The translations under genes were made by a program, and so were the position numbers. Positions 11,289 through 45,256 of a DNA stretch of 48,742 nt are shown one piece after another. The notes under the pieces are model-generated. The model had not been told where the DNA came from and did no database searches. It worked only from the letters and a program-made list of their open reading frames with translations. The stretch comes from Candidatus Parcubacteria bacterium (lineage in GTDB: Bacteria > Patescibacteriota > Patescibacteriia > UBA1558 > GWA2-36-10), in the NCBI GenBank assembly GCA_018664825.1, contig JABJNO010000017.1, forward strand, positions 1 to 48,742, given 5' to 3'. The stretch's first letter is position 1, and each line of letters begins with the position of its first letter.

Positions 11289-12827
11289 ATGGAAAAGTTG
11301 AACATTGTTGGAATTGAGGCCAAATCCTCTGGTTTGCATGTTTATTCTAAGCATGCTGATAATCCCAGAACAGGATTGCCACGTCTATTGACCCCGCTCG
11401 ATCAGCTTGGACACAATTGCAAGATTTATTGCGAAGAGTTGCCGGATTCACGGGTCGATTGGGATATTGTAGCCGAGGCTCATATAGTGATGATTTCATC
11501 TATCACTTCAACCGCACCTCGAGCCTATGACTTGGCTCGTAGGGTTCGAGAGGTCAATCCAAGAGCCACTATTTTGGGTGGTGGTCCACACTTTACCTTT
11601 GAGTACCAAGAGGCACTCGAAAACGGAATTGATTTTGTTTTTCTGCATTGGGCAGACATCAGTTTCTTTGAGTGGCTGGATTGGTATCAGTCGTTGCTAA
11701 ATCCGTGTGAGATTTCGGCTGTTGATCTTGAAGCTCTCCACGGAATTCGTGGTTTAGCCTTTATGATTGCCAATCATCCTCACAAGACCAAGCGTCCTGT
11801 AGAAGTCGATCCCGACACCTGGCCTACTCCAGATTTTCGTCTGGTACAAGGGTACAAGCCCAAGTTTATTGTCCTGATTACATCCGAAGGATGTGATCAC
11901 AACTGTGAGTTTTGCTCAATCTGGGCTATGTACGGTGCCAAATATCGTGCTCGCTCAACTGACAAGGTCATCGAAGATATTCGGTTTTACCGAGAGCTCT
12001 ACGGTAATATACCCATCTTTGTTGGCGATGATAACATGGCAGCTGACACCCTAAACCTCAAAAGAGAGATTGTAGTATCAGGTGAAGATCGTCTGCGCAA
12101 CATTTGTCAGGGCATCATCGATGCTGGTCTTCATGGTAGCTATTCTTGTCAGGTTCGTCTGGCTTTGGGTGATCATCCAGAATTATTGGATTTGATGGCT
12201 CAAGCTGGATTTGATCGAGCTTGTATTGGTTACGAATCGGTAGAACCAGAAAACTTCAAAGCCACTGACGGAAAGCTAGATTTTGACCGCATGGAAGAGC
12301 AGACCGCTGCTTTTCATAGGCACGGTATAGCTATTCACGCTATGTGGGTCCTGGGTTTTGCGGCTGACACTGTAGATACAGTCAAAAAGACCCTCAAGCT
12401 TTGCATGAAGTGGAAAATTGAGACCAATCAATTTATGATCTTGGTACCTATTCCCGGATCTCCGCTTCGGAAGAGACTCCTCAAGCAAGGTAGGGTCCTT
12501 CACAATGACTGGGAAAAATACGATGGACGCCATGTTGTTTTTGAGCCTGAGCTTATCGGAGCTCGCGAACTTCAGGTGGCCGTAGTGCTTGATGCTATGC
12601 CCAAGATTTACAACTTATTCCAGACTTTCCGTATTTACCTCGATGGTAATATGCGGACTCTTGGGAGATGCTTGAGTCATCGGGCGCCTCATCCCAGAAT
12701 TGAGTTTAAGAGTCATCTTGGCACTTTGGCCATGCGTTTGGTAGGATTCAACACTGTTAGGAGAGTCAAAAAAGATACTCTGAAGTATCTGGAGACATTA
12801 AGAAGGTTTAGTAAGTCTGTTGCTTAG
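11289..12827 (+). CDS. Cobalamin-binding radical SAM enzyme
   Basis: N-terminal B12-binding-like domain (ISSITS..., GGPH), CDHNCEFC cluster motif, GDDN, IGYES, PIPGS; SD GAGGT; GC-richer than flanks. Confidence 0.9.
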   Translation: MEKLNIVGIEAKSSGLHVYSKHADNPRTGLPRLLTPLDQLGHNCKIYCEELPDSRVDWDIVAEAHIVMISSITSTAPRAYDLARRVREVNPRATILGGGPHFTFEYQEALENGIDFVFLHWADISFFEWLDWYQSLLNPCEISAVDLEALHGIRGLAFMIANHPHKTKRPVEVDPDTWPTPDFRLVQGYKPKFIVLITSEGCDHNCEFCSIWAMYGAKYRARSTDKVIEDIRFYRELYGNIPIFVGDDNMAADTLNLKREIVVSGEDRLRNICQGIIDAGLHGSYSCQVRLALGDHPELLDLMAQAGFDRACIGYESVEPENFKATDGKLDFDRMEEQTAAFHRHGIAIHAMWVLGFAADTVDTVKKTLKLCMKWKIETNQFMILVPIPGSPLRKRLLKQGRVLHNDWEKYDGRHVVFEPELIGARELQVAVVLDAMPKIYNLFQTFRIYLDGNMRTLGRCLSHRAPHPRIEFKSHLGTLAMRLVGFNTVRRVKKDTLKYLETLRRFSKSVA

Positions 12828-12841
12828 GCAACAGTTTTGTG

Positions 12842-12876
12842 CCCGCGGTTTCGTATTAGCGAAACCGCGGGTTTTT
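12842..12876 (+). terminator. Intrinsic terminator of radical SAM unit
   Basis: CCCGCGGTTTCG-TATTAG-CGAAACCGCGGG followed by TTTTT. Confidence 0.9.
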
Positions 12877-13399
12877 ATTTTTTTATAATATTTTGAATAA
12901 ATTTATTTTTGAGAGCAGTATATTTTGGTCGGTCATCAGCATATTTTAAAAATAAATCCTGTTTTAGTTTTTGGTATTCATCTCGAGCAGATTTATCTTT
13001 TATCAAGTAGTCACGAAATTGTATAAGATTTTTCCAATCTTGACCTTGATGTTTTTCAATGTGTAGGTAAATTGTACGGTTTTCTTCTGGACCCTTGGCC
13101 AAAAACACTCTATTTTCTGAGCTGGCATCGGGACGAAAATGGTAGCCGATTTTTTCTAAAGGCTCTAAACATATTTTAGCTTTATCTATATCCTCTACTG
13201 CTAGAGCAATATCAATAATTGGCTTGGCAGAAATTTTTGGAATAGCAGTGCTACCAACATGTTGGATGTCGATTATTTTTATACGTGGAGATAAAGTTTT
13301 TTCTAGTAGTTCTTTTTCTGTCAAAAATAATTTTGGCCAACTTTTATTGTAGGGTGAAAGTTTTACAATGCCTCTTTTTAGACCAATTTCTTTAGCCAT
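12875..13399 (-). CDS. GrpB/UPF0157 family nucleotidyltransferase-fold protein
   Basis: YNxxWP..F, HVGSTAIP..AKPIIDI, FRDYL, Y..LK. Confidence 0.92.
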   Translation of the reverse strand: MAKEIGLKRGIVKLSPYNKSWPKLFLTEKELLEKTLSPRIKIIDIQHVGSTAIPKISAKPIIDIALAVEDIDKAKICLEPLEKIGYHFRPDASSENRVFLAKGPEENRTIYLHIEKHQGQDWKNLIQFRDYLIKDKSARDEYQKLKQDLFLKYADDRPKYTALKNKFIQNIIKK

Positions 13400-30519: not shown

Positions 30520-30604
30520 TTAAGTGTTTTTTTAGTGTTTAGATCTACTAAATTATAGGAAATTTGGGAGAAATAGTCAATGATTTGGGATAAATTTACT
30601 ATTA

Positions 30605-38009: not shown

Positions 38010-38723
38010 GTGATGACAAGGTTACTATCTTGGTTTCAAGTCATCAAGACTTGGGCGAAATCTAGAATAGTTGAGATACTATTTTGGTTCCAGGTCATCA
38101 TGATCTGGGTTTATGCAATTCCACAAGCCAAACACCTGATCGCTGGTAAGACCACGGGTCTCACCCTCGCTCTTTGGCTCTGTTTCTTGGGCTATCTTGT
38201 AGTAGGGCTCTCGTTGTCTATCCTGGCTTATCGTGAGCCGATCCTAAACAAGGAAACAGAAGAAGAAAGATTAAAGGAAAAGAAAAAACGTCTTTATACT
38301 ATCCTCATCTTTGCTCTGATTGGCCTTGTGATGTTTGGCCTTTTTCTCTTGGCCATCAAAACTGTCCGATGGACAACTGGAGATACTGCCGTCAGTATAG
38401 TAGTCGTCGTCCTATCGATACTTACGAGTTGTTATTTTCGTAGTATCAAGGATCCGATGGCTCGTGGTTGGCTAGCAGTATGGTGCAAAGGAGTGGCTCA
38501 GCTTTGGGCAGGTTACGTGATGTTTACATCCGTCAGTTCAGAGTGGATACCTCCATTGTCTATGTTGGCTACCCACGGTACTATGTGGACTCGTTTTTTC
38601 CAAGTATACTCCCAAGGTAAAAGTGGTGGTTGGGATAGACCAACCAAGGGTCTGATGTTGGGCGAAAGTTCCAATGTCATTTCTTGGTCATTGGTCACCA
38701 TCCTCTGGTTTTTTCTAAGATAA
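38010..38723 (+). CDS. Multi-pass membrane protein, PQ-loop-like
   Basis: SD AGGAGG; AIPQ....GKTTGLTL resembles a PQ-loop repeat; about 7 TM. Confidence 0.7.
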   Translation: MMTRLLSWFQVIKTWAKSRIVEILFWFQVIMIWVYAIPQAKHLIAGKTTGLTLALWLCFLGYLVVGLSLSILAYREPILNKETEEERLKEKKKRLYTILIFALIGLVMFGLFLLAIKTVRWTTGDTAVSIVVVVLSILTSCYFRSIKDPMARGWLAVWCKGVAQLWAGYVMFTSVSSEWIPPLSMLATHGTMWTRFFQVYSQGKSGGWDRPTKGLMLGESSNVISWSLVTILWFFLR

Positions 38724-38729
38724 CAAAAA

Positions 38730-38765
38730 CAGGACCAGCAAGAAATTGCTGGTCCTTTTCATTTT
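38730..38765 (+). terminator. Intrinsic terminator
   Basis: AGGACCAGCAA-GAAA-TTGCTGGTCCT-TTT. Confidence 0.9.
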
Positions 38766-38770
38766 AATCA

Positions 38771-38987
38771 AAAAAGCTCTACTAGATAGTAGGGCTTTGT
38801 TTTAAAGTAAAAGGAAAACCCGCGAAAGTTTTCCAGGGAAGAAGATGGTTGGGTTGATACTCTTTGTCCGAAGACTCTGAATTTTGGCCACTGACCAGTT
38901 CTTGAATTTGTCGCATGCGACATGGTGTCCGTAAGGACGTCTGGGCTTTCGCGGGTGATTACCTAACTGATTACTCAGTAGGTACTC
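38771..38987 (-). ncRNA. Putative structured ncRNA D, copy 1
   Basis: Promoter TTGACA-16-TAATAT with extended TG (39018-38991); GUAA-capped 5' hairpin; 11-bp helix ACCCGCGAAAG/CUUUCGCGGGU; C(UUCG)G hairpin; terminator 38798-38771; paralogue at 44.5 kb. Confidence 0.8.
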
Positions 38988-39146
38988 GTTATATTATCAG
39001 ACTGACAGAATCTGTCAAGCGATTTATGCGAGAGTTATCAACAATATAAAATCTGGTAGATAAAAGTCGACTAAATTACGTTGTAGCCAAATGGATACAA
39101 AAAAACTTTTATAGCGTCTTGTGGGTATAGTGGTTGTTGTTCAGAC

Positions 39147-39175
39147 TTGACAAAATACATTTTTTAGTGTAGAAT
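39147..39175 (+). promoter_or_regulatory. sigma70 promoter of DEAD-box helicase
   Basis: TTGACA-17-TAGAAT about 95 nt upstream of ATG. Confidence 0.8.
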
Positions 39176-39272
39176 ATTCTATTATTATGCTTCAACTTTA
39201 AAGAAGCAGACTCGGAACCTCTCGTTTTATATAGATACGACCAGATGGATCATTGGGTCGTAATTTTTATAT

Positions 39273-40616
39273 ATGACAAAAACAACAAGTAAAGACTTGG
39301 ATTTTAATGGATTGGGTATCTCTCCAAGCATATTAAAGCAATTGAAAAAATTGAACTTTAATATACCAACACCTATACAACATCAATCAATACCTATTGC
39401 TATAAAAGGTCAGGACATGATGGGCATTGCCCAGACTGGTACTGGTAAGACTTTGGCTTTTGGTATTCCAATGCTACAAATAGTACAGGCCAACAATAGT
39501 GCTGGTCTAGTAGTTTTGCCTACTCGTGAGCTAGCTGCTCAAGTAGATCAATCTCTCAAAACACTTGGGAGTGCTTTTGGTATCCGTACAGCTATTTTGA
39601 TTGGCGGAACTCCAATAGAACCTCAAATGAGAGCATTGAACAAAAGACCTCATGTCATCATAGCTACTCCTGGAAGATTGATAGATCATATCAATAGAAA
39701 GAGAGCTATCTTGAGCAATGTAAAAATTTTGGTATTGGACGAAGCTGATCGTATGCTCGATATGGGATTTGAGCCAGATATCAAAAGAATATTAGCCGCT
39801 ATCCCCGCTGGCAGACGTCAGACTATGCTTTTTTCAGCTACTATGCCGATGAAAATAACCAAGCTAGCCGAAGGCTATTTGCGCTCACCTATCCGAGTAG
39901 AAGTTGCTCCAGCTGGAAGTACTGCCAAAAGTATAGAGCAAGAAGTATTTATTATACCCAAACCAAAGAAACTTTCTTTATTGGACAGTCTGTTGTCTGA
40001 ATACAAAGAGCGTGTGCTTGTATTTAGCAGAACCAAGCATGGTGCAAAAAAGATTACTAGAACACTAAACTCACTAGGACACAAAGCTGCAGAAATACAT
40101 TCAAATAGATCATTGACCCAACGAACTAGAGCTCTCAAGGATTTCAAATCCGGTGCAGTTCGAGTTTTGATAGCTACTGATATTGCTTCACGTGGTATTG
40201 ATGTCAAAGATATAGAATTGGTAATCAATTATGATTTACCTGAGCAGGCCGAAGATTATGTTCATCGTATTGGACGTACTGGTAGAGCTGGTAAAAAAGG
40301 TAAAGCCATTTCATTTGTTGCCCCTGATCAAAAAAGAGATTTATTTTTAATCGAACGACTTGTTCGTGTAAAATTACCCATCAAACCATTGCCTGAAATG
40401 AAGGAGCATATTTCTATACCAAAAGAGCCAATCAGAAGAAGTTTTGTTGGGCGAGGTAGTAGATCAGCTAGTGGAAGATCCACAGGTGGTAGATCTGGTA
40501 GATCTGGTAGATCTAGCAGGCCAAGTAGACCAAATAAACCAGCCAAGAGTTCTGGTGGTTTCAAAAGTCGTCGTCGTAGACCAGGTAAAAGTGCTCGTAA
40601 CAAGACTAGTCAATAA
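39273..40616 (+). CDS. DEAD-box RNA helicase (RhlE/CshA-like) with basic R/G/S tail
   Basis: Q motif PTPIQ, AQTGTGKT, PTRELA, TPGR, DEAD, SAT, HRIGRTGR. Confidence 0.97.
   Translation: MTKTTSKDLDFNGLGISPSILKQLKKLNFNIPTPIQHQSIPIAIKGQDMMGIAQTGTGKTLAFGIPMLQIVQANNSAGLVVLPTRELAAQVDQSLKTLGSAFGIRTAILIGGTPIEPQMRALNKRPHVIIATPGRLIDHINRKRAILSNVKILVLDEADRMLDMGFEPDIKRILAAIPAGRRQTMLFSATMPMKITKLAEGYLRSPIRVEVAPAGSTAKSIEQEVFIIPKPKKLSLLDSLLSEYKERVLVFSRTKHGAKKITRTLNSLGHKAAEIHSNRSLTQRTRALKDFKSGAVRVLIATDIASRGIDVKDIELVINYDLPEQAEDYVHRIGRTGRAGKKGKAISFVAPDQKRDLFLIERLVRVKLPIKPLPEMKEHISIPKEPIRRSFVGRGSRSASGRSTGGRSGRSGRSSRPSRPNKPAKSSGGFKSRRRRPGKSARNKTSQ
40488..40514 (+). repeat. (GGTAGATCT)x3 coding tandem repeat (GRS)3
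   Basis: Seen directly in the helicase tail. Confidence 0.85.
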
Positions 40617-41116
40617 TGAGAGTACCTATTCGAAAAGCTGGTAAATATACTTTTATAAAACCCGATCCATATATTACTCAAGAAAAATTTGATGAGCTCG
40701 TCAAAAATCTAGAAAGATTGAAAAAAGTTGTTCAACCAAAGCTGATAGGAGAAGTCAAAAGATTGGGAGAAATGGGAGATTTTTCTGAAAATACAGCATA
40801 TCAAATGGCCAAAGGTAAGCTACGTGGTATAAATCAAAAGATAATCCAGACTGAAAAACAACTTGGCATTGCCAAAATTATCAAGACAGACAAAAATGCT
40901 CTGGTAGTTCAGATAGGTAGTAGAGTGATTGTTGAAATAAACAAACAAACTCAAAAATTTCAGATTTTGGGATCACTAGAAACTAGTCCTGGTACAGGAA
41001 CAATTTCTCATCAGTCCCCTCTTGGCAAAGCTTTGCTGAATAAAAAACTGGGAGATGTAGTACAAGTAAAAACTGAGGACAGGAAAATAGAATATAAAAT
41101 AATAAATATAGAATAA
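40616..41116 (+). CDS. GreA/GreB family transcript cleavage factor
   Basis: YIT.E, GDFSENTAY, V.IGS.V, ISHQSPLGKALL. Confidence 0.92.
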   Translation: MRVPIRKAGKYTFIKPDPYITQEKFDELVKNLERLKKVVQPKLIGEVKRLGEMGDFSENTAYQMAKGKLRGINQKIIQTEKQLGIAKIIKTDKNALVVQIGSRVIVEINKQTQKFQILGSLETSPGTGTISHQSPLGKALLNKKLGDVVQVKTEDRKIEYKIINIE

Positions 41117-41180
41117 AAAACTACCCACCGGGTAGTTTTTTGATAGACTTTTCACAATTTAACAAAATTATGCTATATTT

Positions 41181-41645
41181 ATGCATATGGAATTAATACT
41201 TATAGGTTTACATGCTGGAATTGGAGAGATCGGAGCTTTGTCTTTTTTATGGGTGTTCATAGAATTGCTTAGTCCCAATCTCCAACGAGTAGCCAGAGCA
41301 AAGGTTGCTGCTATGATAGGCGTAGTGGCGTTATTTACTTCATGGATTATAGGAGGTTATTATTATGTGACTTTTTATGGAGCAAATGTAAAACCAGCAA
41401 TCAAGGCTGGTCCTATGCCTTGGGCACATCTGGTCATGACAGAAACCAAAGAACACGTTTTTCTCTTTTTGCCATTTTTGGCAATTTTAATCTTGGGCTT
41501 GATACACGCACACAAAGAACAATTGCTAAAAGGTGAACGTATCAAATCAATTCTTATTTTAAGTCTCTTGGTATTTTTGATTAGTATGGCTATGGCTGGT
41601 ATGGGCTATATGATATCAAGTGGTTTTAGGAGCGCTATTACATAA
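41181..41645 (+). CDS. Four-TM membrane protein
   Basis: H..GE, GGYYYV..YG..VK..IK.G..PWAH..E.KEH.FLF. Confidence 0.78.
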   Translation: MHMELILIGLHAGIGEIGALSFLWVFIELLSPNLQRVARAKVAAMIGVVALFTSWIIGGYYYVTFYGANVKPAIKAGPMPWAHLVMTETKEHVFLFLPFLAILILGLIHAHKEQLLKGERIKSILILSLLVFLISMAMAGMGYMISSGFRSAIT

Positions 41646-41649
41646 ATAT

Positions 41650-41955
41650 ATGAAGAAAATAAATCCACAAGCATTAGCAAGATCTACTTCATTTACAATT
41701 ATTCTAATTGTTATAATGACTATATGGTCAGAGCTTCATTCTGCATTCAAAGGTGTTTTGACAGATATGAGTGGCCATCACTGGGTAAGTAAAGGTATAA
41801 TTTCTCTGGTATTTTTTGCAATAATGTATTTCCTTATGCACAAAAAAGCCGTTGGTCACGATGCCAAACAATGTGAGATGGGTCCTGTATGGATGACAGT
41901 CGCCGGTGGCCTGATTATTTTTATCTTTTATCTCTGGCATTATCTAGCAGCCTAA
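41650..41955 (+). CDS. Three-TM membrane protein
   Basis: Start ATG 41650; GHHWVSK motif. Confidence 0.72.
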   Translation: MKKINPQALARSTSFTIILIVIMTIWSELHSAFKGVLTDMSGHHWVSKGIISLVFFAIMYFLMHKKAVGHDAKQCEMGPVWMTVAGGLIIFIFYLWHYLAA

Positions 41956-41973
41956 GTACAATAAACATCAAAT

Positions 41974-42001
41974 AAAAAATCACCCAGCTGGGTGATTTTT
42001 A
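41974..42001. terminator. Bidirectional terminator
   Basis: AAAAATCACCC-AGCT-GGGTGATTTTT. Confidence 0.85.
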
Positions 42002-42012
42002 GTTTTGATTTT

Positions 42013-43632
42013 TTATTCTACCAAGCTTTTACCCTGCCATTTCATCTGACGAAGCATAGCTAGTTCTGCTTCGCTTGGTTTGTGAAATATTTCATCATAT
42101 TCATACTCTGTTGGGTCAGTGTCATATTCAGCGTCTACTTCATCCATTTTTGCTTCTGCACTTTCAGGAGTATTACCCATTGCACCATTGTATATTCTAG
42201 CTAAATATTCATTTAAAAAACTCTCAAACTCATCTTTTTCTCTACTATCGTCTTGTTCTTCTTTAGTTAATTCAGCAAAATTTTCAGGTTTAGGCTTTAT
42301 GTCCGTTAAGTCATGTTTGGTAGTTATTTCTGTAGAAAAATTTTCAATAGCTTCATCATCACTTAAGTCTAGATCCTCAATATTAAAACCAATATCTGAA
42401 TAATATGGCAGATCATCTCCAAATCTATCTCTCTGTCCTTTTAGAGACATAGTTAGTAGCTCAGCTGTACCGGGACCTTCGTAGCCTTCTGCTCCTAGTT
42501 TTGTCTTAAAAAAATCATGAAAAGCTTCGTGTGGTAGGCAGGTTTCGGTGATGACTTTTTGTTTTTCATTGCTAGCCATATAATCAGCCAAATCTTGCTC
42601 TACTTTTTCTTTGTGTTTAGAAATAAGTGCTGGTATTTCAGATGGATTTGTGGCAGGACCAGAAATCTGCTCCATGGCATCCCAAATCTCTTCAATTTTT
42701 TGTCTTTTTTCATCTCTTGATAGGTTTGAGCGCTCTACTTGCGTTAACAGGGTAAGTCTTTCAGCTGTAATAGCTGTCGCAACTGCTGCCATTTCTAGTT
42801 GAGCTTTTTTTCTTTCTTTATCATTATCTTGGTCCAAAAATATAGCCTCAGTCGAATGTTGATAAAAAGCTCCATAAGCAAATCTACCAATATCCCCAAA
42901 GTCTACTTGGACAACTTCAAGGCTCTCATCATCAAAAGAAATCTCTCCACTAGCAATAGCTTTGTCTAGAGCTTCTTTTAGGGGGTCTGTATTTGTAAAC
43001 ATCTCATAAGGTTCGGGTATTTCCAATGAGTGGACACTTACCTCGTCTACAAAACTGCATTGCTCTAAGCCATCTTTAATCTCAGATTCAGATAAGGTAG
43101 TTTCGTGTTCTGAGTATTGATCGATTAATTCATTTACTTCTTCTAGGTCTTCATTTTCTTGTTCAGTTGTTTGTTCGCTCGCCTCACCCGTTTTGCTAAA
43201 AAGGCCAAGCTCAGCACCAGCAGCAACGCCAGCGGCTGTTTTGGTAGATATATCAACAAATTTTCTTCTAGACATTTGGCCTGGTTCGCCCGTTTCATCT
43301 GTATCTTCAGGAATAGAATCAGCAGAAACTAGACTCTTTATTTTATCTTTTGTGGTAATTACCAAAGTGTTAATAGTTTCAGTAATTTGAGACATTTTTT
43401 CTTTGGCAGTATCCAAAAAACCAGAACCACCTTCTACTTCTTCGGCTTTTAGACCACTAGCAGCTTCGCTCAAAAGATTTTCTCCACTTTCTATCACCTC
43501 AGTAGAGTTATCATCAATTTTGGCCTCTACTACTTCTGGGGATTCGGTTGTATTTTCTACTGCTGATTCAACACTAGATTCTTGTTGCCCTTCATTTGAA
43601 CTTGGGTTTTCTGAACTTGAGTTTTCAAACAT
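42013..43632 (-). CDS. Highly acidic protein with internal twin-arginine-like motif and HExxH zincin motif
   Basis: MSRRKF + hydrophobic stretch at residue 120; PHEAFH and distal NEYLA. Confidence 0.75.
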   Translation of the reverse strand: MFENSSSENPSSNEGQQESSVESAVENTTESPEVVEAKIDDNSTEVIESGENLLSEAASGLKAEEVEGGSGFLDTAKEKMSQITETINTLVITTKDKIKSLVSADSIPEDTDETGEPGQMSRRKFVDISTKTAAGVAAGAELGLFSKTGEASEQTTEQENEDLEEVNELIDQYSEHETTLSESEIKDGLEQCSFVDEVSVHSLEIPEPYEMFTNTDPLKEALDKAIASGEISFDDESLEVVQVDFGDIGRFAYGAFYQHSTEAIFLDQDNDKERKKAQLEMAAVATAITAERLTLLTQVERSNLSRDEKRQKIEEIWDAMEQISGPATNPSEIPALISKHKEKVEQDLADYMASNEKQKVITETCLPHEAFHDFFKTKLGAEGYEGPGTAELLTMSLKGQRDRFGDDLPYYSDIGFNIEDLDLSDDEAIENFSTEITTKHDLTDIKPKPENFAELTKEEQDDSREKDEFESFLNEYLARIYNGAMGNTPESAEAKMDEVDAEYDTDPTEYEYDEIFHKPSEAELAMLRQMKWQGKSLVE

Positions 43633-43641
43633 AATAAAATA

Positions 43642-43797
43642 TTATAATTCTCTTCTAATTTTCTCCAATTTTTTTTGTTCTACTTGGTTTATAAAATCAT
43701 TGATAACCTTTGACTGCTCTTTTTGCAATTCACGAAGTTTATCAATATATTCATCGTATATATCTTCTATTTTGTTTTTTTCGTCTTTTTTATCCAT
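43642..43797 (-). CDS. 51-aa charged helical peptide (not in ORF track)
   Basis: MDKKDEKNKIEDIYDEYIDKLRELQKEQSKVINDFINQVEQKKLEKIRREL; 9 nt upstream of 43632 start. Confidence 0.65.
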   Translation of the reverse strand: MDKKDEKNKIEDIYDEYIDKLRELQKEQSKVINDFINQVEQKKLEKIRREL

Positions 43798-43838
43798 AAT
43801 ATTAACGCATCTTGGATGATTTTTAGTTTTGAAATTTT

Positions 43839-44447
43839 TTATTCAACGAAAGTAAAACTTTTTACCACTGCTTCAAAAATAGATTGATTTTGTGGTAAAT
43901 CACTAGATACATACATCAAACGAAAAGTCTGTTCACCTTTTTCAAAATGATATTCAATCATTTTATTTTCATTAGTCTGTATTTCAAATCGTGTAGCTGG
44001 CTGTCCGGCTACAGTAATTTGTTTGCTGGCGTATCCTGTCATATTTTTTTTGAGCTCTTCCAAATCAAATCTTGATTTTTCTATTACAATTTGTCCCAAA
44101 TATTCAGACCCTAGACCAATGAGAGCATTTTTGTCTGATATAAAATAATCATCTATCAATTCATTTGTACCAGCGGCAGTCAAATTATTTTTCATAAAAT
44201 GTTGCCAATACCAATTGTCAGGCCTCATGATTGTATAGCCCATTGCTTTGTTTTCATACAATACATAGTCAACATCGACAGCTACTACAGTAGTATCTTT
44301 TTTTGTATCTTTTTTAGTAGTGTCAGCATCCTTGGTATCCTCTACTTGATTTGTGTCTAAAGGTTTATCTTCCTCTACATTTTTTGAGGTACATCCTGCA
44401 CCCATCAACAAAGGCACGACAAGTAAAAGTAATAATGTTTTTTTCAT
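43839..44447 (-). CDS. Lipoprotein with PsbP-like C-terminal domain
   Basis: LLMGAGC lipobox; YEN..GY.I..P..W; F..VVKSF.F. Confidence 0.8.
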   Translation of the reverse strand: MKKTLLLLLVVPLLMGAGCTSKNVEEDKPLDTNQVEDTKDADTTKKDTKKDTTVVAVDVDYVLYENKAMGYTIMRPDNWYWQHFMKNNLTAAGTNELIDDYFISDKNALIGLGSEYLGQIVIEKSRFDLEELKKNMTGYASKQITVAGQPATRFEIQTNENKMIEYHFEKGEQTFRLMYVSSDLPQNQSIFEAVVKSFTFVE

Positions 44448-44484
44448 AGTTTTTGTATTTTAGTATTTATAAACTTATTATATC

Positions 44485-44686
44485 AAAAAATCGCCTATTG
44501 GGCGATTTTGAAGTAAAAGGAAAACCCGCGAAAGTTTTCCAGAAGAAGAGTTTTTAGGTTGGGTTGTTACTCGTTGTCCGAAGACTCTGAATTTTTGGCC
44601 ACTGACCATTCTTCTTGTTTCTTTTGACGGAAACGTTCTAGTTGCTTTCGCGGGTGATTACCGAACTGATTACTCAGTAGGTACTC
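44485..44686 (-). ncRNA. Putative structured ncRNA D, copy 2
   Basis: Homologous to 38805-39018 including the promoter (44717-44690); same helices; different terminator (44509-44485). Confidence 0.8.
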
Positions 44687-44723
44687 GTTATATTAGCAGA
44701 CCCACAGGATCTGTCAAATATAG

Positions 44724-44732
44724 TTATCCACA
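44724..44732 (+). promoter_or_regulatory. Perfect DnaA box next to ncRNA D copy 2 promoter
   Basis: TTATCCACA; copy 1 has TTATCAACA at 39035-39043. Confidence 0.55.
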
Positions 44733-44734
44733 GG

Positions 44735-45256
44735 CTATTTTAGTAGGCCAGTTTTTGACTGAATCCAGTTCCAAGGAGTGGCCTGCATATAATGTAATAG
44801 GTATTCTTGAGCCATTTTTGGTACTAGTAATATAAATAATACTATAAATAATCTTTTTGTAGTAAGCTGAAATTTTTTGAAATAACGATTGCGGGCTGCC
44901 CAAAATAAAAACCAATTTTCAAACAAATTTGGGAATACAAAAAGTAAAACTCGGGTATGTGTAATTTCAAAAAGAACCACGCCTATCAATCTATAGACAA
45001 ACAAGATAATAGAAGTTTTTTTGGCTAGTCCGTGCCACTTTAGACTGACAATAAAAGAAAAAGCTAGATAATACATATCAAGTCCTTTATCTAGTGCTGA
45101 ATAATTGGCAAAATCCCCCATCTGGAATACATCTATCAATATCACGTCAATTGCATCAAGCACAAGGGCTATCACTGTCCCCCAAAAGGGCCAACGAAAG
45201 ATTGAAAGTGGTACGATTAATCTTAGTAGTATGACTATTAGTGGTCCTAATTCCAT
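44735..45256 (-). CDS. Membrane protein
   Basis: LDAID, Y..LDK.LD, FPN.FE, PK..QEY.LH motifs among TM segments. Confidence 0.78.
   Translation of the reverse strand: MELGPLIVILLRLIVPLSIFRWPFWGTVIALVLDAIDVILIDVFQMGDFANYSALDKGLDMYYLAFSFIVSLKWHGLAKKTSIILFVYRLIGVVLFEITHTRVLLFVFPNLFENWFLFWAARNRYFKKFQLTTKRLFIVLFILLVPKMAQEYLLHYMQATPWNWIQSKTGLLK

Follow-up and report, generated by a model that had tools for sequence, protein, structure and literature searches.

A candidate pair of sibling genes for a structured small RNA in a marine Candidatus Parcubacteria bacterium

Introduction

OmrA/OmrB and GlmY/GlmZ are examples of sibling trans-acting small RNAs (sRNAs), and 6S RNA occurs as two paralogues in Bacillus and in some Firmicutes. 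Transcriptional ON riboswitches and attenuators form a general class of their own; the P1 helices of riboswitches need a ligand and are far less stable than the helix designated P1 in this work. In a published account (PMC5821096), EutX/Rli55 is described as a trans-acting sRNA that contains a riboswitch and has two terminators, of which the earlier is conditional. The present study concerns a 48,742-nucleotide stretch of DNA (contig JABJNO010000017.1, the whole of which is referred to as the window) from Candidatus Parcubacteria bacterium, a marine, ultra-small organism whose 1.16-Mb genome (G000) is assembled in 25 contigs and is 98.7% complete. Two minus-strand units with the same layout were found in the window, copy 1 at 39018-38770 and copy 2 at 44717-44485, each comprising a promoter, a 5' hairpin (P0), a domain closed by an 11-bp long-range helix (P1) and two successive terminators (T1 and T2). 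Judged from their sequences, these units are probably two sibling genes, each encoding a structured small RNA that stands alone and acts in trans; the family is uncatalogued and restricted to a small marine clade of Parcubacteria.

The units resemble the sibling sRNAs in that two neighbouring homologous genes, each with its own promoter and terminator (recognised by consensus only), have nearly identical ends and cores and a diverged internal stretch. They differ from them in having no sequence or Rfam relation and in that Hfq was not found in this genome; unlike typical base-pairing sRNAs, the RNA is also larger and far more structured. With EutX/Rli55, the units share the organisation of a stand-alone non-coding RNA with a constitutive-type promoter and a structured domain closed off by a conditional terminator, by which short and long forms would be possible. 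Unlike EutX/Rli55, they contain no AdoCbl (adenosylcobalamin) aptamer and have no Rfam match, the long form adds just a 15-40-nt linker and T2 without a recognisable binding site, and it is the closed (P1) state that would prevent termination and that is strongly favoured without ligand. As in ON riboswitches and attenuators, a multi-helix domain is closed by a P1 whose 3' strand overlaps an intrinsic terminator hairpin; in contrast to them, the RNA does not lie, as far as sequence signals go, in the 5' untranslated region of a gene, T2 and a separate promoter follow it, copy 1 faces a convergent gene, and P1 is unusually long and stable. The sibling sRNAs and EutX/Rli55 may be regarded as the closest functional analogies; membership of either group is not claimed.

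Layout of the two units

Alignment of the two copies (A1) showed that they share the promoter, a 5' GNRA hairpin, the 11-bp long-range helix, two small hairpins and a C/A-rich strand. P0 is a 25-nt hairpin with a GUAA loop, UACCUACUGA-GUAA-UCAGUU(A/C)GGUA, common to both. The P1 strands, ACCCGCGAAAG and CUUUCGCGGGU, form an 11-nt inverted repeat that is 100% complementary in both copies and is spaced by 117 nt in copy 1 and by 110 nt in copy 2. Between these strands, both copies contain UGGUCAGUGGCCA (P3), then AUUC-AGA-GUC-UUCG-GAC-AAN-GAGU (P4) and a C/A-rich stretch with CAACCCAACC. The identity between the copies was 31/35 in the promoter, 28/29 in the P0 region, 11/11 in the 5' strand of P1, 65/76 in the core and 27/28 in the 3' strand of P1 together with the U-run, whereas an internal segment of 35-47 nt matched in 25 of 50 aligned columns and the flanks were 46-54% identical. 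An earlier note, made from the sequence alone, had placed the shared promoter, the 5' hairpin, the 11-bp helix and the P3 and P4 elements on the minus strand at these positions, and reading and aligning both copies bore this out. The elements are as follows.

38991..39018, minus strand: copy 1 promoter, -35 TTGACA, 16-nt spacer with TG, -10 TAATAT (consensus match)
44690..44717, minus strand: copy 2 promoter, -35 TTGACA, 16-nt spacer with TG, -10 TAATAT (consensus match)
38960..38984, minus strand: copy 1 P0, 5' hairpin with a GUAA (GNRA) loop and one bulged U (fold)
44659..44683, minus strand: copy 2 P0, 5' hairpin with a GUAA loop and one U-C mismatch (fold)
38946..38956, minus strand: copy 1 P1, 5' strand ACCCGCGAAAG (inverted-repeat search, 100% complementary; folds)
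44645..44655, minus strand: copy 2 P1, 5' strand (inverted-repeat search, folds)
38885..38897, minus strand: copy 1 P3, hairpin UGGUC-AGU-GGCCA (folds, alignment)
44596..44608, minus strand: copy 2 P3, hairpin (folds, alignment)
38859..38882, minus strand: copy 1 P4, AUUC-AGA-GUC-UUCG-GAC-AAA-GAGU, two short helices around a 3x3 internal loop
44569..44592, minus strand: copy 2 P4, UUCG loop (folds, alignment)
38837..38858, minus strand: copy 1 C/A-rich and pyrimidine strand, AUCAACCCAACCAUC, then UUCUU able to pair with AAGAA; the pairing register of the pyrimidine part is ambiguous
44541..44568, minus strand: copy 2 C/A-rich single strand AACAACCCAACCUAAAAAC, then UCUUCU (3' strand of P5) and the start of the 3' strand of P1b

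Each gene is predicted to have a strong sigma-70-type promoter with a perfect -35 element and a TG-extended -10 element; both promoters agree with the consensus at 10 of 12 positions, with TG present. The RNA is apparently strongly transcribed. Its length, as read from the sequence, would be approximately 165-175 nt up to the first terminator and approximately 200-215 nt up to the second. The predicted folding energy was -66.5 kcal/mol for copy 1 (z -5.98) and -59.4 kcal/mol for copy 2 (z -5.25), and none of 200 shuffled sequences was as good in either case. A search for sequencing runs that contain the sequence gave 20 DNA runs and no RNA run, which has no bearing on expression. In four DNA sequencing runs, low-depth contigs were identical to the window across the RNA and contained no informative variants.

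Homologues and range

Only two copies, 5.7 kb apart, were found by blastn in the genome, and the nine other matches all had E values of at least 0.25. The family is therefore multicopy, as had been proposed, to the extent of two copies and no more. The whole window gave no match to Rfam 15 at the gathering score; at E values up to 10, the region 38600-39200 gave only terminator-region noise of 13-27 bits, far under the cut-offs.

A covariance model (R1) was built from four sequences, and the search for copies was extended with it to relatives, as the earlier note had suggested. At the family level, R1 gave 110-194 bits in three of 39 genomes, namely G000 and two others, G015 and G023, whose RNAs are more distant homologues (110-163 bits). 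At the order level, three of 86 genomes matched at E values up to 1e-4, and at the class level G000 was alone among 151 sampled genomes. Weak matches of 26-29.5 bits over 71-151 nt in five other family genomes and at 12808-12892 of the window were treated as noise, and short blastn matches of 27-32 nt to the terminator region in genomes G003 and G016 were not confirmed by R1.

A motif pattern scan of the species-genome collection found just the G015 and G023 records, which are labelled Candidatus Parcubacteria or uncultured metagenome-assembled genomes. Two matches in viral contigs were both GC-rich chance matches with no R1 score. Among metagenome contigs, six stretches were found, of which four were confirmed by R1 at 153-183 bits (L034, L036, L038 and L039) and two were not (L035 and L037). 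L038 is the orthologue of copy 1, since the same convergent gene lies downstream, and L034 is the orthologue of copy 2, since it has the same upstream gene. Because L036 equals the G023 copy and L039 equals the G015 RNA, six distinct sequences are known. The core is 93-97% identical between orthologues, whereas the non-coding flanks are only 58-59% identical between copy 1 and L038 and 70% identical downstream of copy 2 and L034; likewise, the copy 1 promoter is identical to that of L038 at 34 of 35 positions, whereas the DNA upstream of it is only 59% identical. The earlier proposal of a conserved family of structured non-coding RNA with a constant scaffold was upheld: the family of structured small RNA genes to which the pair belongs is genuine, uncatalogued and restricted to a clade. 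The scaffold may bind a protein, as had also been proposed.

In G015, the RNA is located at two contig ends (L012, the end of contig C1, and L016, the start of contig C8), which overlap by approximately 120 nt inside the RNA gene. L039 has the RNA and the upstream DNA of G015 and different downstream DNA; therefore, G015-like organisms may have two copies or strain variants. The upstream membrane protein gene (44735-45256) was tried as an anchor for diverged copies and was abandoned, its orthologues in G001 and G015 not being followed by the RNA.

By the evidence of its sequence, the RNA is non-coding. Copy 1 contains a 51-codon open reading frame (38768-38923), the AUG of which falls within an inserted hairpin and is missing in L038, and there is a 1-nt indel between the copies inside the shared core, at CCAAAA(A)UUC.

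Conservation of the fold

Six separate minimum free energy (MFE) folds had the same plan: P0, P1 (11 bp), a short continuation of P1 (P1b) and a side hairpin (P2) were present in all six, and a purine/pyrimidine helix (P5) was present in five, being possible and not predicted in copy 1. P1b has 4-6 bp (CCAG/CUGG, CUAGA/UCUGG or CAGA/UCUG), and P5 is AGAAGA/UCUUCU, GAAAGA/UCUUUC or GAAAG/CUUUC. The apical part consists of P3 (5 bp), P4 (4+3 bp) and 15-25 nt of C/A-rich single strand. In the resulting model, the rod would be formed by P1, P1b and probably P5, would carry P2 as a side hairpin and would end in the conserved apical domain.

Thirty-three pairs of P0, P1, P3 and P4 (195 pair cells) were scored on a model-fitted alignment (A4). 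It was found that 93.8% of the cells were paired, compared with 30-41% when the partners were slid by 1-3 columns. Four compensatory pairs were observed, all within P0, and 20 of 500 shuffles reached the observed value. In P3, 93.3% of the cells were paired, and L036 exchanges GGUC/GGCC for GGCC/GGUC. The U-G pairs in P3, in the extension of P4 and in T1 would be C-A mismatches on the opposite strand; therefore, the strand is fixed as minus, in agreement with what had been claimed from the loops. Mimicry of ribosomal RNA by P4 was rejected, as the best genomic look-alike, C11:6877-6897, is no RNA gene.

Terminators and the alternative between P1 and T1

The terminator scan flagged GGAAAACUU-UCGC-GGGUUUUCC followed by UUUUACUU in both copies (T1). 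A second terminator, T2, starts 10-40 nt past T1.

38813..38834, minus strand: copy 1 T1, terminator-like hairpin GGAAAACUU-UCGC-GGGUUUUCC (terminator scan, -8.9 kcal/mol); the 3' strand of P1 (38828-38818) lies within it, as does the GG of P1b, and the U-run is at 38812-38804
44519..44540, minus strand: copy 2 T1, hairpin containing the 3' strand of P1 (44534-44524), with the U-run at 44518-44511
38770..38796, minus strand: copy 1 T2, strong intrinsic terminator with no sequence relation to T2 of copy 2
44485..44509, minus strand: copy 2 T2, terminator AAAAUCGCC-CAAUA-GGCGAUUUU

Every one of the six sequences has T1, at -8.0 to -9.7 kcal/mol, and a U-run follows it in each. In G015 it is GAGACUC-UCGC-GGGUCUC, with two compensatory changes from A-U to G-C and one change from U-G to C-G; in G023, by reading of the sequences, one A and one U have been lost, which amounts to one base pair. 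On A4, 94.4% of the 54 cells of T1 were paired, compared with 36-69% in the slid alignments. The two compensatory pairs of T1 both come from G015, and 34 of 500 shuffles reached the observed value. The statement of the earlier note that the downstream terminators are unrelated is correct for T2 of copy 1 and copy 2, whereas T1, which is common to both, had been overlooked.

T1 takes up all of the 3' strand of P1 as well as the GG of P1b, so that it and the P1/P1b rod are mutually exclusive. An H-type pseudoknot containing both P1 and T1 was rejected on geometry, as it would have zero linker nucleotides. The P1 state was calculated at -45.6 to -54.1 kcal/mol and the T1 state at -33.5 to -41.1 kcal/mol, a gap of 11-15 kcal/mol; therefore, T1 should act only when the 5' strand of P1 is unavailable.

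T2 is homologous among copy 2, L034, G015 (contig C1) and G023, where it has the form AUCGCC...GGCGAU followed by a U-run. After T2, the same four have an extended -10 element for the next gene, TGATATAAT or, in G023, TGCTATACT; in copy 2, TGATATAAT overlaps the U-run of T2. Since this element precedes the next gene, the RNA seems to form a transcription unit of its own.

A perfect 11-bp bidirectional terminator is located at 38731-38756, between T2 of copy 1 and the convergent gene. L038 is without it, and T2 there appears to serve both directions.

The variable segment

The internal segment in which the copies differ has the following parts.

38898..38944, minus strand: copy 1 variable segment; 5' strand of P1b, CCAG, 38944-38941; P2, GUCC-UUAC-GGAC, 38938-38927; inserted hairpin P2', 38922-38909; purine strand AAGAA, 38903-38899
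44609..44643, minus strand: copy 2 variable segment; 5' strand of P1b, CUAGA, 44641-44637; P2, GUUUC-CGUCAAAA-GAAAC, 44634-44617; purine strand AGAAGA, 44615-44610

P2 directly follows P1b in all six sequences. Its stem is GUCC...GGAC in copy 1, L038 and G015, GCC...GGC in G023, GUUUC...GAAAC in copy 2 (5 bp with an 8-nt loop) and AUCUC...GAGAU in L034 (8-nt loop), with two compensatory changes between L034 and copy 2. The extra short hairpin P2' was found in copy 1 (GUCG...CGAC) and L038 (GUC...GAC). The loops of P2 differ even between orthologues (copy 2 and L034; copy 1 and L038).

These observations qualify the earlier description of the segment. That the two segments differ was correct, and so were the two hairpins of copy 1. 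The segment of copy 2 is not merely A-rich, since it forms a 5-bp hairpin that is kept in L034, nor are the segments completely different, since P2 occupies the same place in all six sequences and copy 1 adds an insert to it.

When the variable segments were compared with the rest of the genome, the best matches were 14 nt without mismatch and 18 nt with one mismatch (E values of at least 0.08). The whole RNAs, variable segment included, gave just one match of 43 nt, with an E value of 0.7, among 50,697 phage records. No nuclease or recombinase and no effector of a guide-RNA system (CRISPR/tracrRNA, omega RNA, bridge RNA or retron), such as a Cas protein, TnpB/IscB, an IS110-type recombinase or a reverse transcriptase, is encoded beside either copy; the neighbours are a DEAD-box helicase, GreA and proteins with no family. 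Considering that the loops drift between orthologues and that no genome or phage match was found, P2 may be read as a tolerated peripheral arm and not as a guide or specificity element; a guide function is not supported.

Known RNA classes and partner proteins

RNase P RNA and tmRNA were found elsewhere in the genome, and therefore the genome searches work. The 6S RNA model (RF00013) gave no match at E values up to 1 in the genome and none in the 39 family genomes; the same model matched just five of 14 control genomes. The RNA is similar to 6S RNA in size, in the rod formed by its paired ends, in its open internal region and in the presence of two paralogues. It differs from 6S RNA in the lack of a model match, in its restriction to three of the 39 family genomes and in its fold, in which the closing rod is present whereas the long terminal stem is absent and two short hairpins stand in its place.

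The layout of P4 loosely resembles that of signal recognition particle (SRP) RNA, and this reading was rejected because the whole SRP pathway is missing. The SRP RNA models RF00169 and RF01854 gave no match at E values up to 1 in the genome, and RF00169 gave none in the 39 family genomes. No candidate for the Ffh M domain (PF02978) and no match to the SRP54-type GTPase of Ffh and FtsY (PF00448) was found in the genome; PF00448 was matched in none of 121 class genomes at E values up to 1e-10 and gave just P-loop-sized matches of at most 23 bits in the 39 family genomes. In the literature, ffh and ffs are reported as undetected in Parcubacteria and loss of SRP is described (PMC4508563); the absence of SRP in this genome agrees with that report and is, to that extent, already known.

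A Y RNA was rejected, as the Ro/TROVE protein was not found in the genome, and a CsrA sponge or an Hfq-dependent sRNA was rejected because neither CsrA nor Hfq was found there. Literature searches on structured or small RNAs in Parcubacteria, the Candidate Phyla Radiation (CPR) and Patescibacteria returned nothing relevant.

Gene neighbourhood

A DEAD-box helicase gene, with greA after it, lies divergent to copy 1, which converges on the gene at 38010-38723; no co-oriented gene lies downstream of copy 1 or of L038. GreA is encoded nearby, within 1-3.5 kb, in G000 and also on the G023 contig. The product of the convergent gene (38010-38723, plus strand) has a sub-threshold match to the pilin-like conjugal transfer protein NF045849 (E 1.9e-5, 24 bits, cut-off 40). 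Copy 2 follows the gene for a 173-aa membrane protein (44735-45256), and three genes lie downstream of it.

43839-44447, minus strand: gene for a lipoprotein that belongs to no family, with Cys in its signal peptide, between copy 2 and the next gene
43642..43797, minus strand: P0001, 51-aa charged helical protein, no family; linked to the RNA by neighbourhood and co-occurrence only
42013-43632, minus strand: 539-aa acidic protein, no family, after P0001

The lipoprotein gene is absent at that place in G015 and G023 and therefore looks like an insertion behind T2. In G015 and G023, the RNA is followed immediately by a co-oriented gene for a P0001 homologue; in G000, one gene lies between the RNA and P0001. 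Strong matches to P0001 were found in the same three of 39 family genomes as the RNA (E 5e-26, 2.5e-15 and 5.8e-13), with three weak matches elsewhere; five of the 39 genomes had a match at E values up to 0.01. The association of P0001 with the RNA may reflect a functional link or mere kinship. The downstream DNA differs among copy 2, L034 and L039.

Interpretation and alternatives

A stand-alone unit is indicated by the RNA's own promoter and terminators, by the lack of a co-oriented gene after copy 1 and L038, by the varying downstream genes and by the extended -10 element behind T2. In the mechanism proposed for such a trans-acting RNA, P1 would normally form first, being 11-15 kcal/mol more favourable than T1, and RNA polymerase would pass T1 and stop at T2, so that the product would be a closed RNA resistant to nucleases. 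Occupation of the 5' strand of P1 by a protein, by another RNA or by a misfold would let T1 form and bring transcription to an early end. The surface at which the RNA works would be its conserved apical domain, which might either bind and titrate a protein or pair with a G-rich RNA through its C-rich strand, and P2 would be a tolerated peripheral arm.

Several points weigh against this interpretation. The promoters and terminators are consensus matches only, and two tandem terminators have no clear purpose in a purely trans-acting model. P1 contains no compensatory change, nine of its 11 pairs being invariant, and the P1 of G015 holds one A-C mismatch and one change from C-G to U-G; the case for P1 therefore rests on the preservation of an 11-nt perfect complement and not on covariation. 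In three unconstrained MFE folds, P3 is not formed and its region is paired with the C-rich strand, and the register of P5 is ambiguous. With six distinct sequences from approximately four lineages, the covariation is thin, as the 20 and 34 of 500 shuffles that reached the observed values indicate, and the narrow range (three species genomes, four metagenome contigs) limits both generality and proof of structure. Hfq, CsrA, Ro/TROVE and the SRP proteins, as possible partners, were not found in the genome. Finally, the occurrence of the P0001 gene downstream of the RNA in G015, G023 and G000, the same three of 39 genomes, also fits a role in cis.

Such a role is the main rival, above all for the copy-2 lineage, and is judged unlikely. 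The RNA would be a cis-acting leader or riboswitch-type attenuator, in which the domain senses a ligand or a protein, P1 antiterminates T1 as an ON switch and read-through into the downstream operon of P0001 and the acidic protein is controlled. The overlap of the 3' strand of P1 with a terminator-like hairpin is the classical expression platform of a riboswitch, and in G015 and G023 the P0001-family gene comes immediately after the RNA in the same orientation, with a single inserted gene separating the two in G000. However, T2 and a separate extended -10 element always intervene between the RNA and the gene, the strand of copy 1 and of L038 offers nothing that could be controlled, L034 and L039 are followed by other DNA, and a P1 of 11 bp with seven G-C pairs wins by the whole of the calculated gap without ligand; the co-occurrence with P0001, for its part, may reflect kinship alone. 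A divergent stand-in for a housekeeping RNA missed by Rfam, for which a 6S-like regulator of RNA polymerase is the candidate, has little probability. It would agree with the silence of the 6S model in this genome and in all 39 family genomes, with the strong promoter, with the ends-paired rod and large open apical region with its long single strand, with the paralogue pair known from Bacillus and with the nearby greA genes. Against it, the bubble is not followed by a long terminal stem, 6S RNA has neither the additional 5' hairpin nor the side arm, a housekeeping RNA should be general and not confined to three family genomes, and the silence of a model that missed most of its controls means little. 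SRP RNA as the replaced species is excluded by the lack of an Ffh/FtsY domain, in line with the published loss of SRP in Parcubacteria (PMC4508563).

The reading of the earlier note, in which a constant protein-loading scaffold carries a variable guide or decoy segment directed against own, host or phage nucleic acid, likewise has little probability. A constant scaffold with one divergent 35-47-nt segment and a patchy, clade-restricted distribution would suit it; on the other hand, the segment is a base-paired hairpin whose stem covaries while its loop drifts even between orthologues, neither the genome nor the phage records offered a convincing target, no effector is encoded beside either copy, and just two variants exist per genome. 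The least credible of the alternatives is that the units are a decaying duplicate or the remnant of a mobile element, such as a miniature inverted-repeat transposable element or the end of an insertion sequence, with no function of their own. The repeated unit, its patchy distribution, the variable downstream neighbours and one 15-nt, 87% inverted repeat that brackets copy 2 speak for this origin. There are only two copies, no comparable bracket surrounds copy 1 and no terminal inverted repeat is common to both; in addition, both copies occupy orthologous loci in a second organism, where the core has been kept far better than the flanks, and compensatory changes keep the helices. The features of the end of such an element, a match to which the earlier note had named as a refutation of its reading, are missing.

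The upstream DnaA-box-like site

All six promoters carry, upstream of the -35 element, a 9-mer with at most one mismatch to the DnaA-box consensus.

39035..39043, minus strand: copy 1 DnaA-box-like 9-mer TGTTGATAA, differing from the consensus at one position, 16 nt upstream of -35
44724..44732, minus strand: copy 2 DnaA-box-like 9-mer TGTGGATAA, perfect, 6 nt upstream of -35, beside the stop codon of the upstream gene

The form TGTGGATAA at 6 nt from -35 was found in copy 2, L034, L039/G015 and L036/G023; in copy 1 and L038 the 9-mer is TGTTGATAA or TGTGTACAA and lies a helical turn farther away, at 16 nt. As a background, 17 of 753 genomic TTGACA sites have a DnaA-box-like 9-mer in the same orientation within 30 nt; just two of these 17 boxes are perfect, that of copy 2 being one. 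Perfect boxes number 19 in the genome, compared with a rough expectation of approximately 14.

A more far-reaching and speculative possibility, which we consider rather unlikely, is that the pair represents a new class of self-switching regulatory RNA, highly expressed, tied to the replication or growth state through a DnaA-box-type operator and toggled between P1 and T1 by way of the 5' strand. If so, the length and the activity of a trans-acting RNA would both be set through the capture of its 5' strand or apical domain by a ligand or protein, and a riboswitch-like sensor would work as a free RNA molecule in a lineage that lacks Hfq, CsrA, 6S RNA and SRP. Non-coding RNAs of the CPR and Patescibacteria appear to be little described, and the pair, with its two paralogues, its alternative between helix and terminator and its operator-like site, would provide a tangible point of access to regulation in a marine bacterium of ultra-small size.

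The other perfect TGTGGATAA box just upstream of a TTGACA is located outside the window, on contig C3 of G000 at approximately 57560-57586 (minus strand), and precedes a gene whose product, judged by eye, begins like the N-domain of a Clp-type chaperone. Together with that of copy 2, this box could be the sign of a small regulon common to both.

Five near-identical promoter-like units, TATTGACAAAATAG... TATG.TAT, were also observed on the plus strand of the window at 30603, 33876, 34473, 37935 and 48515; they are unlike the promoters of the RNA genes.

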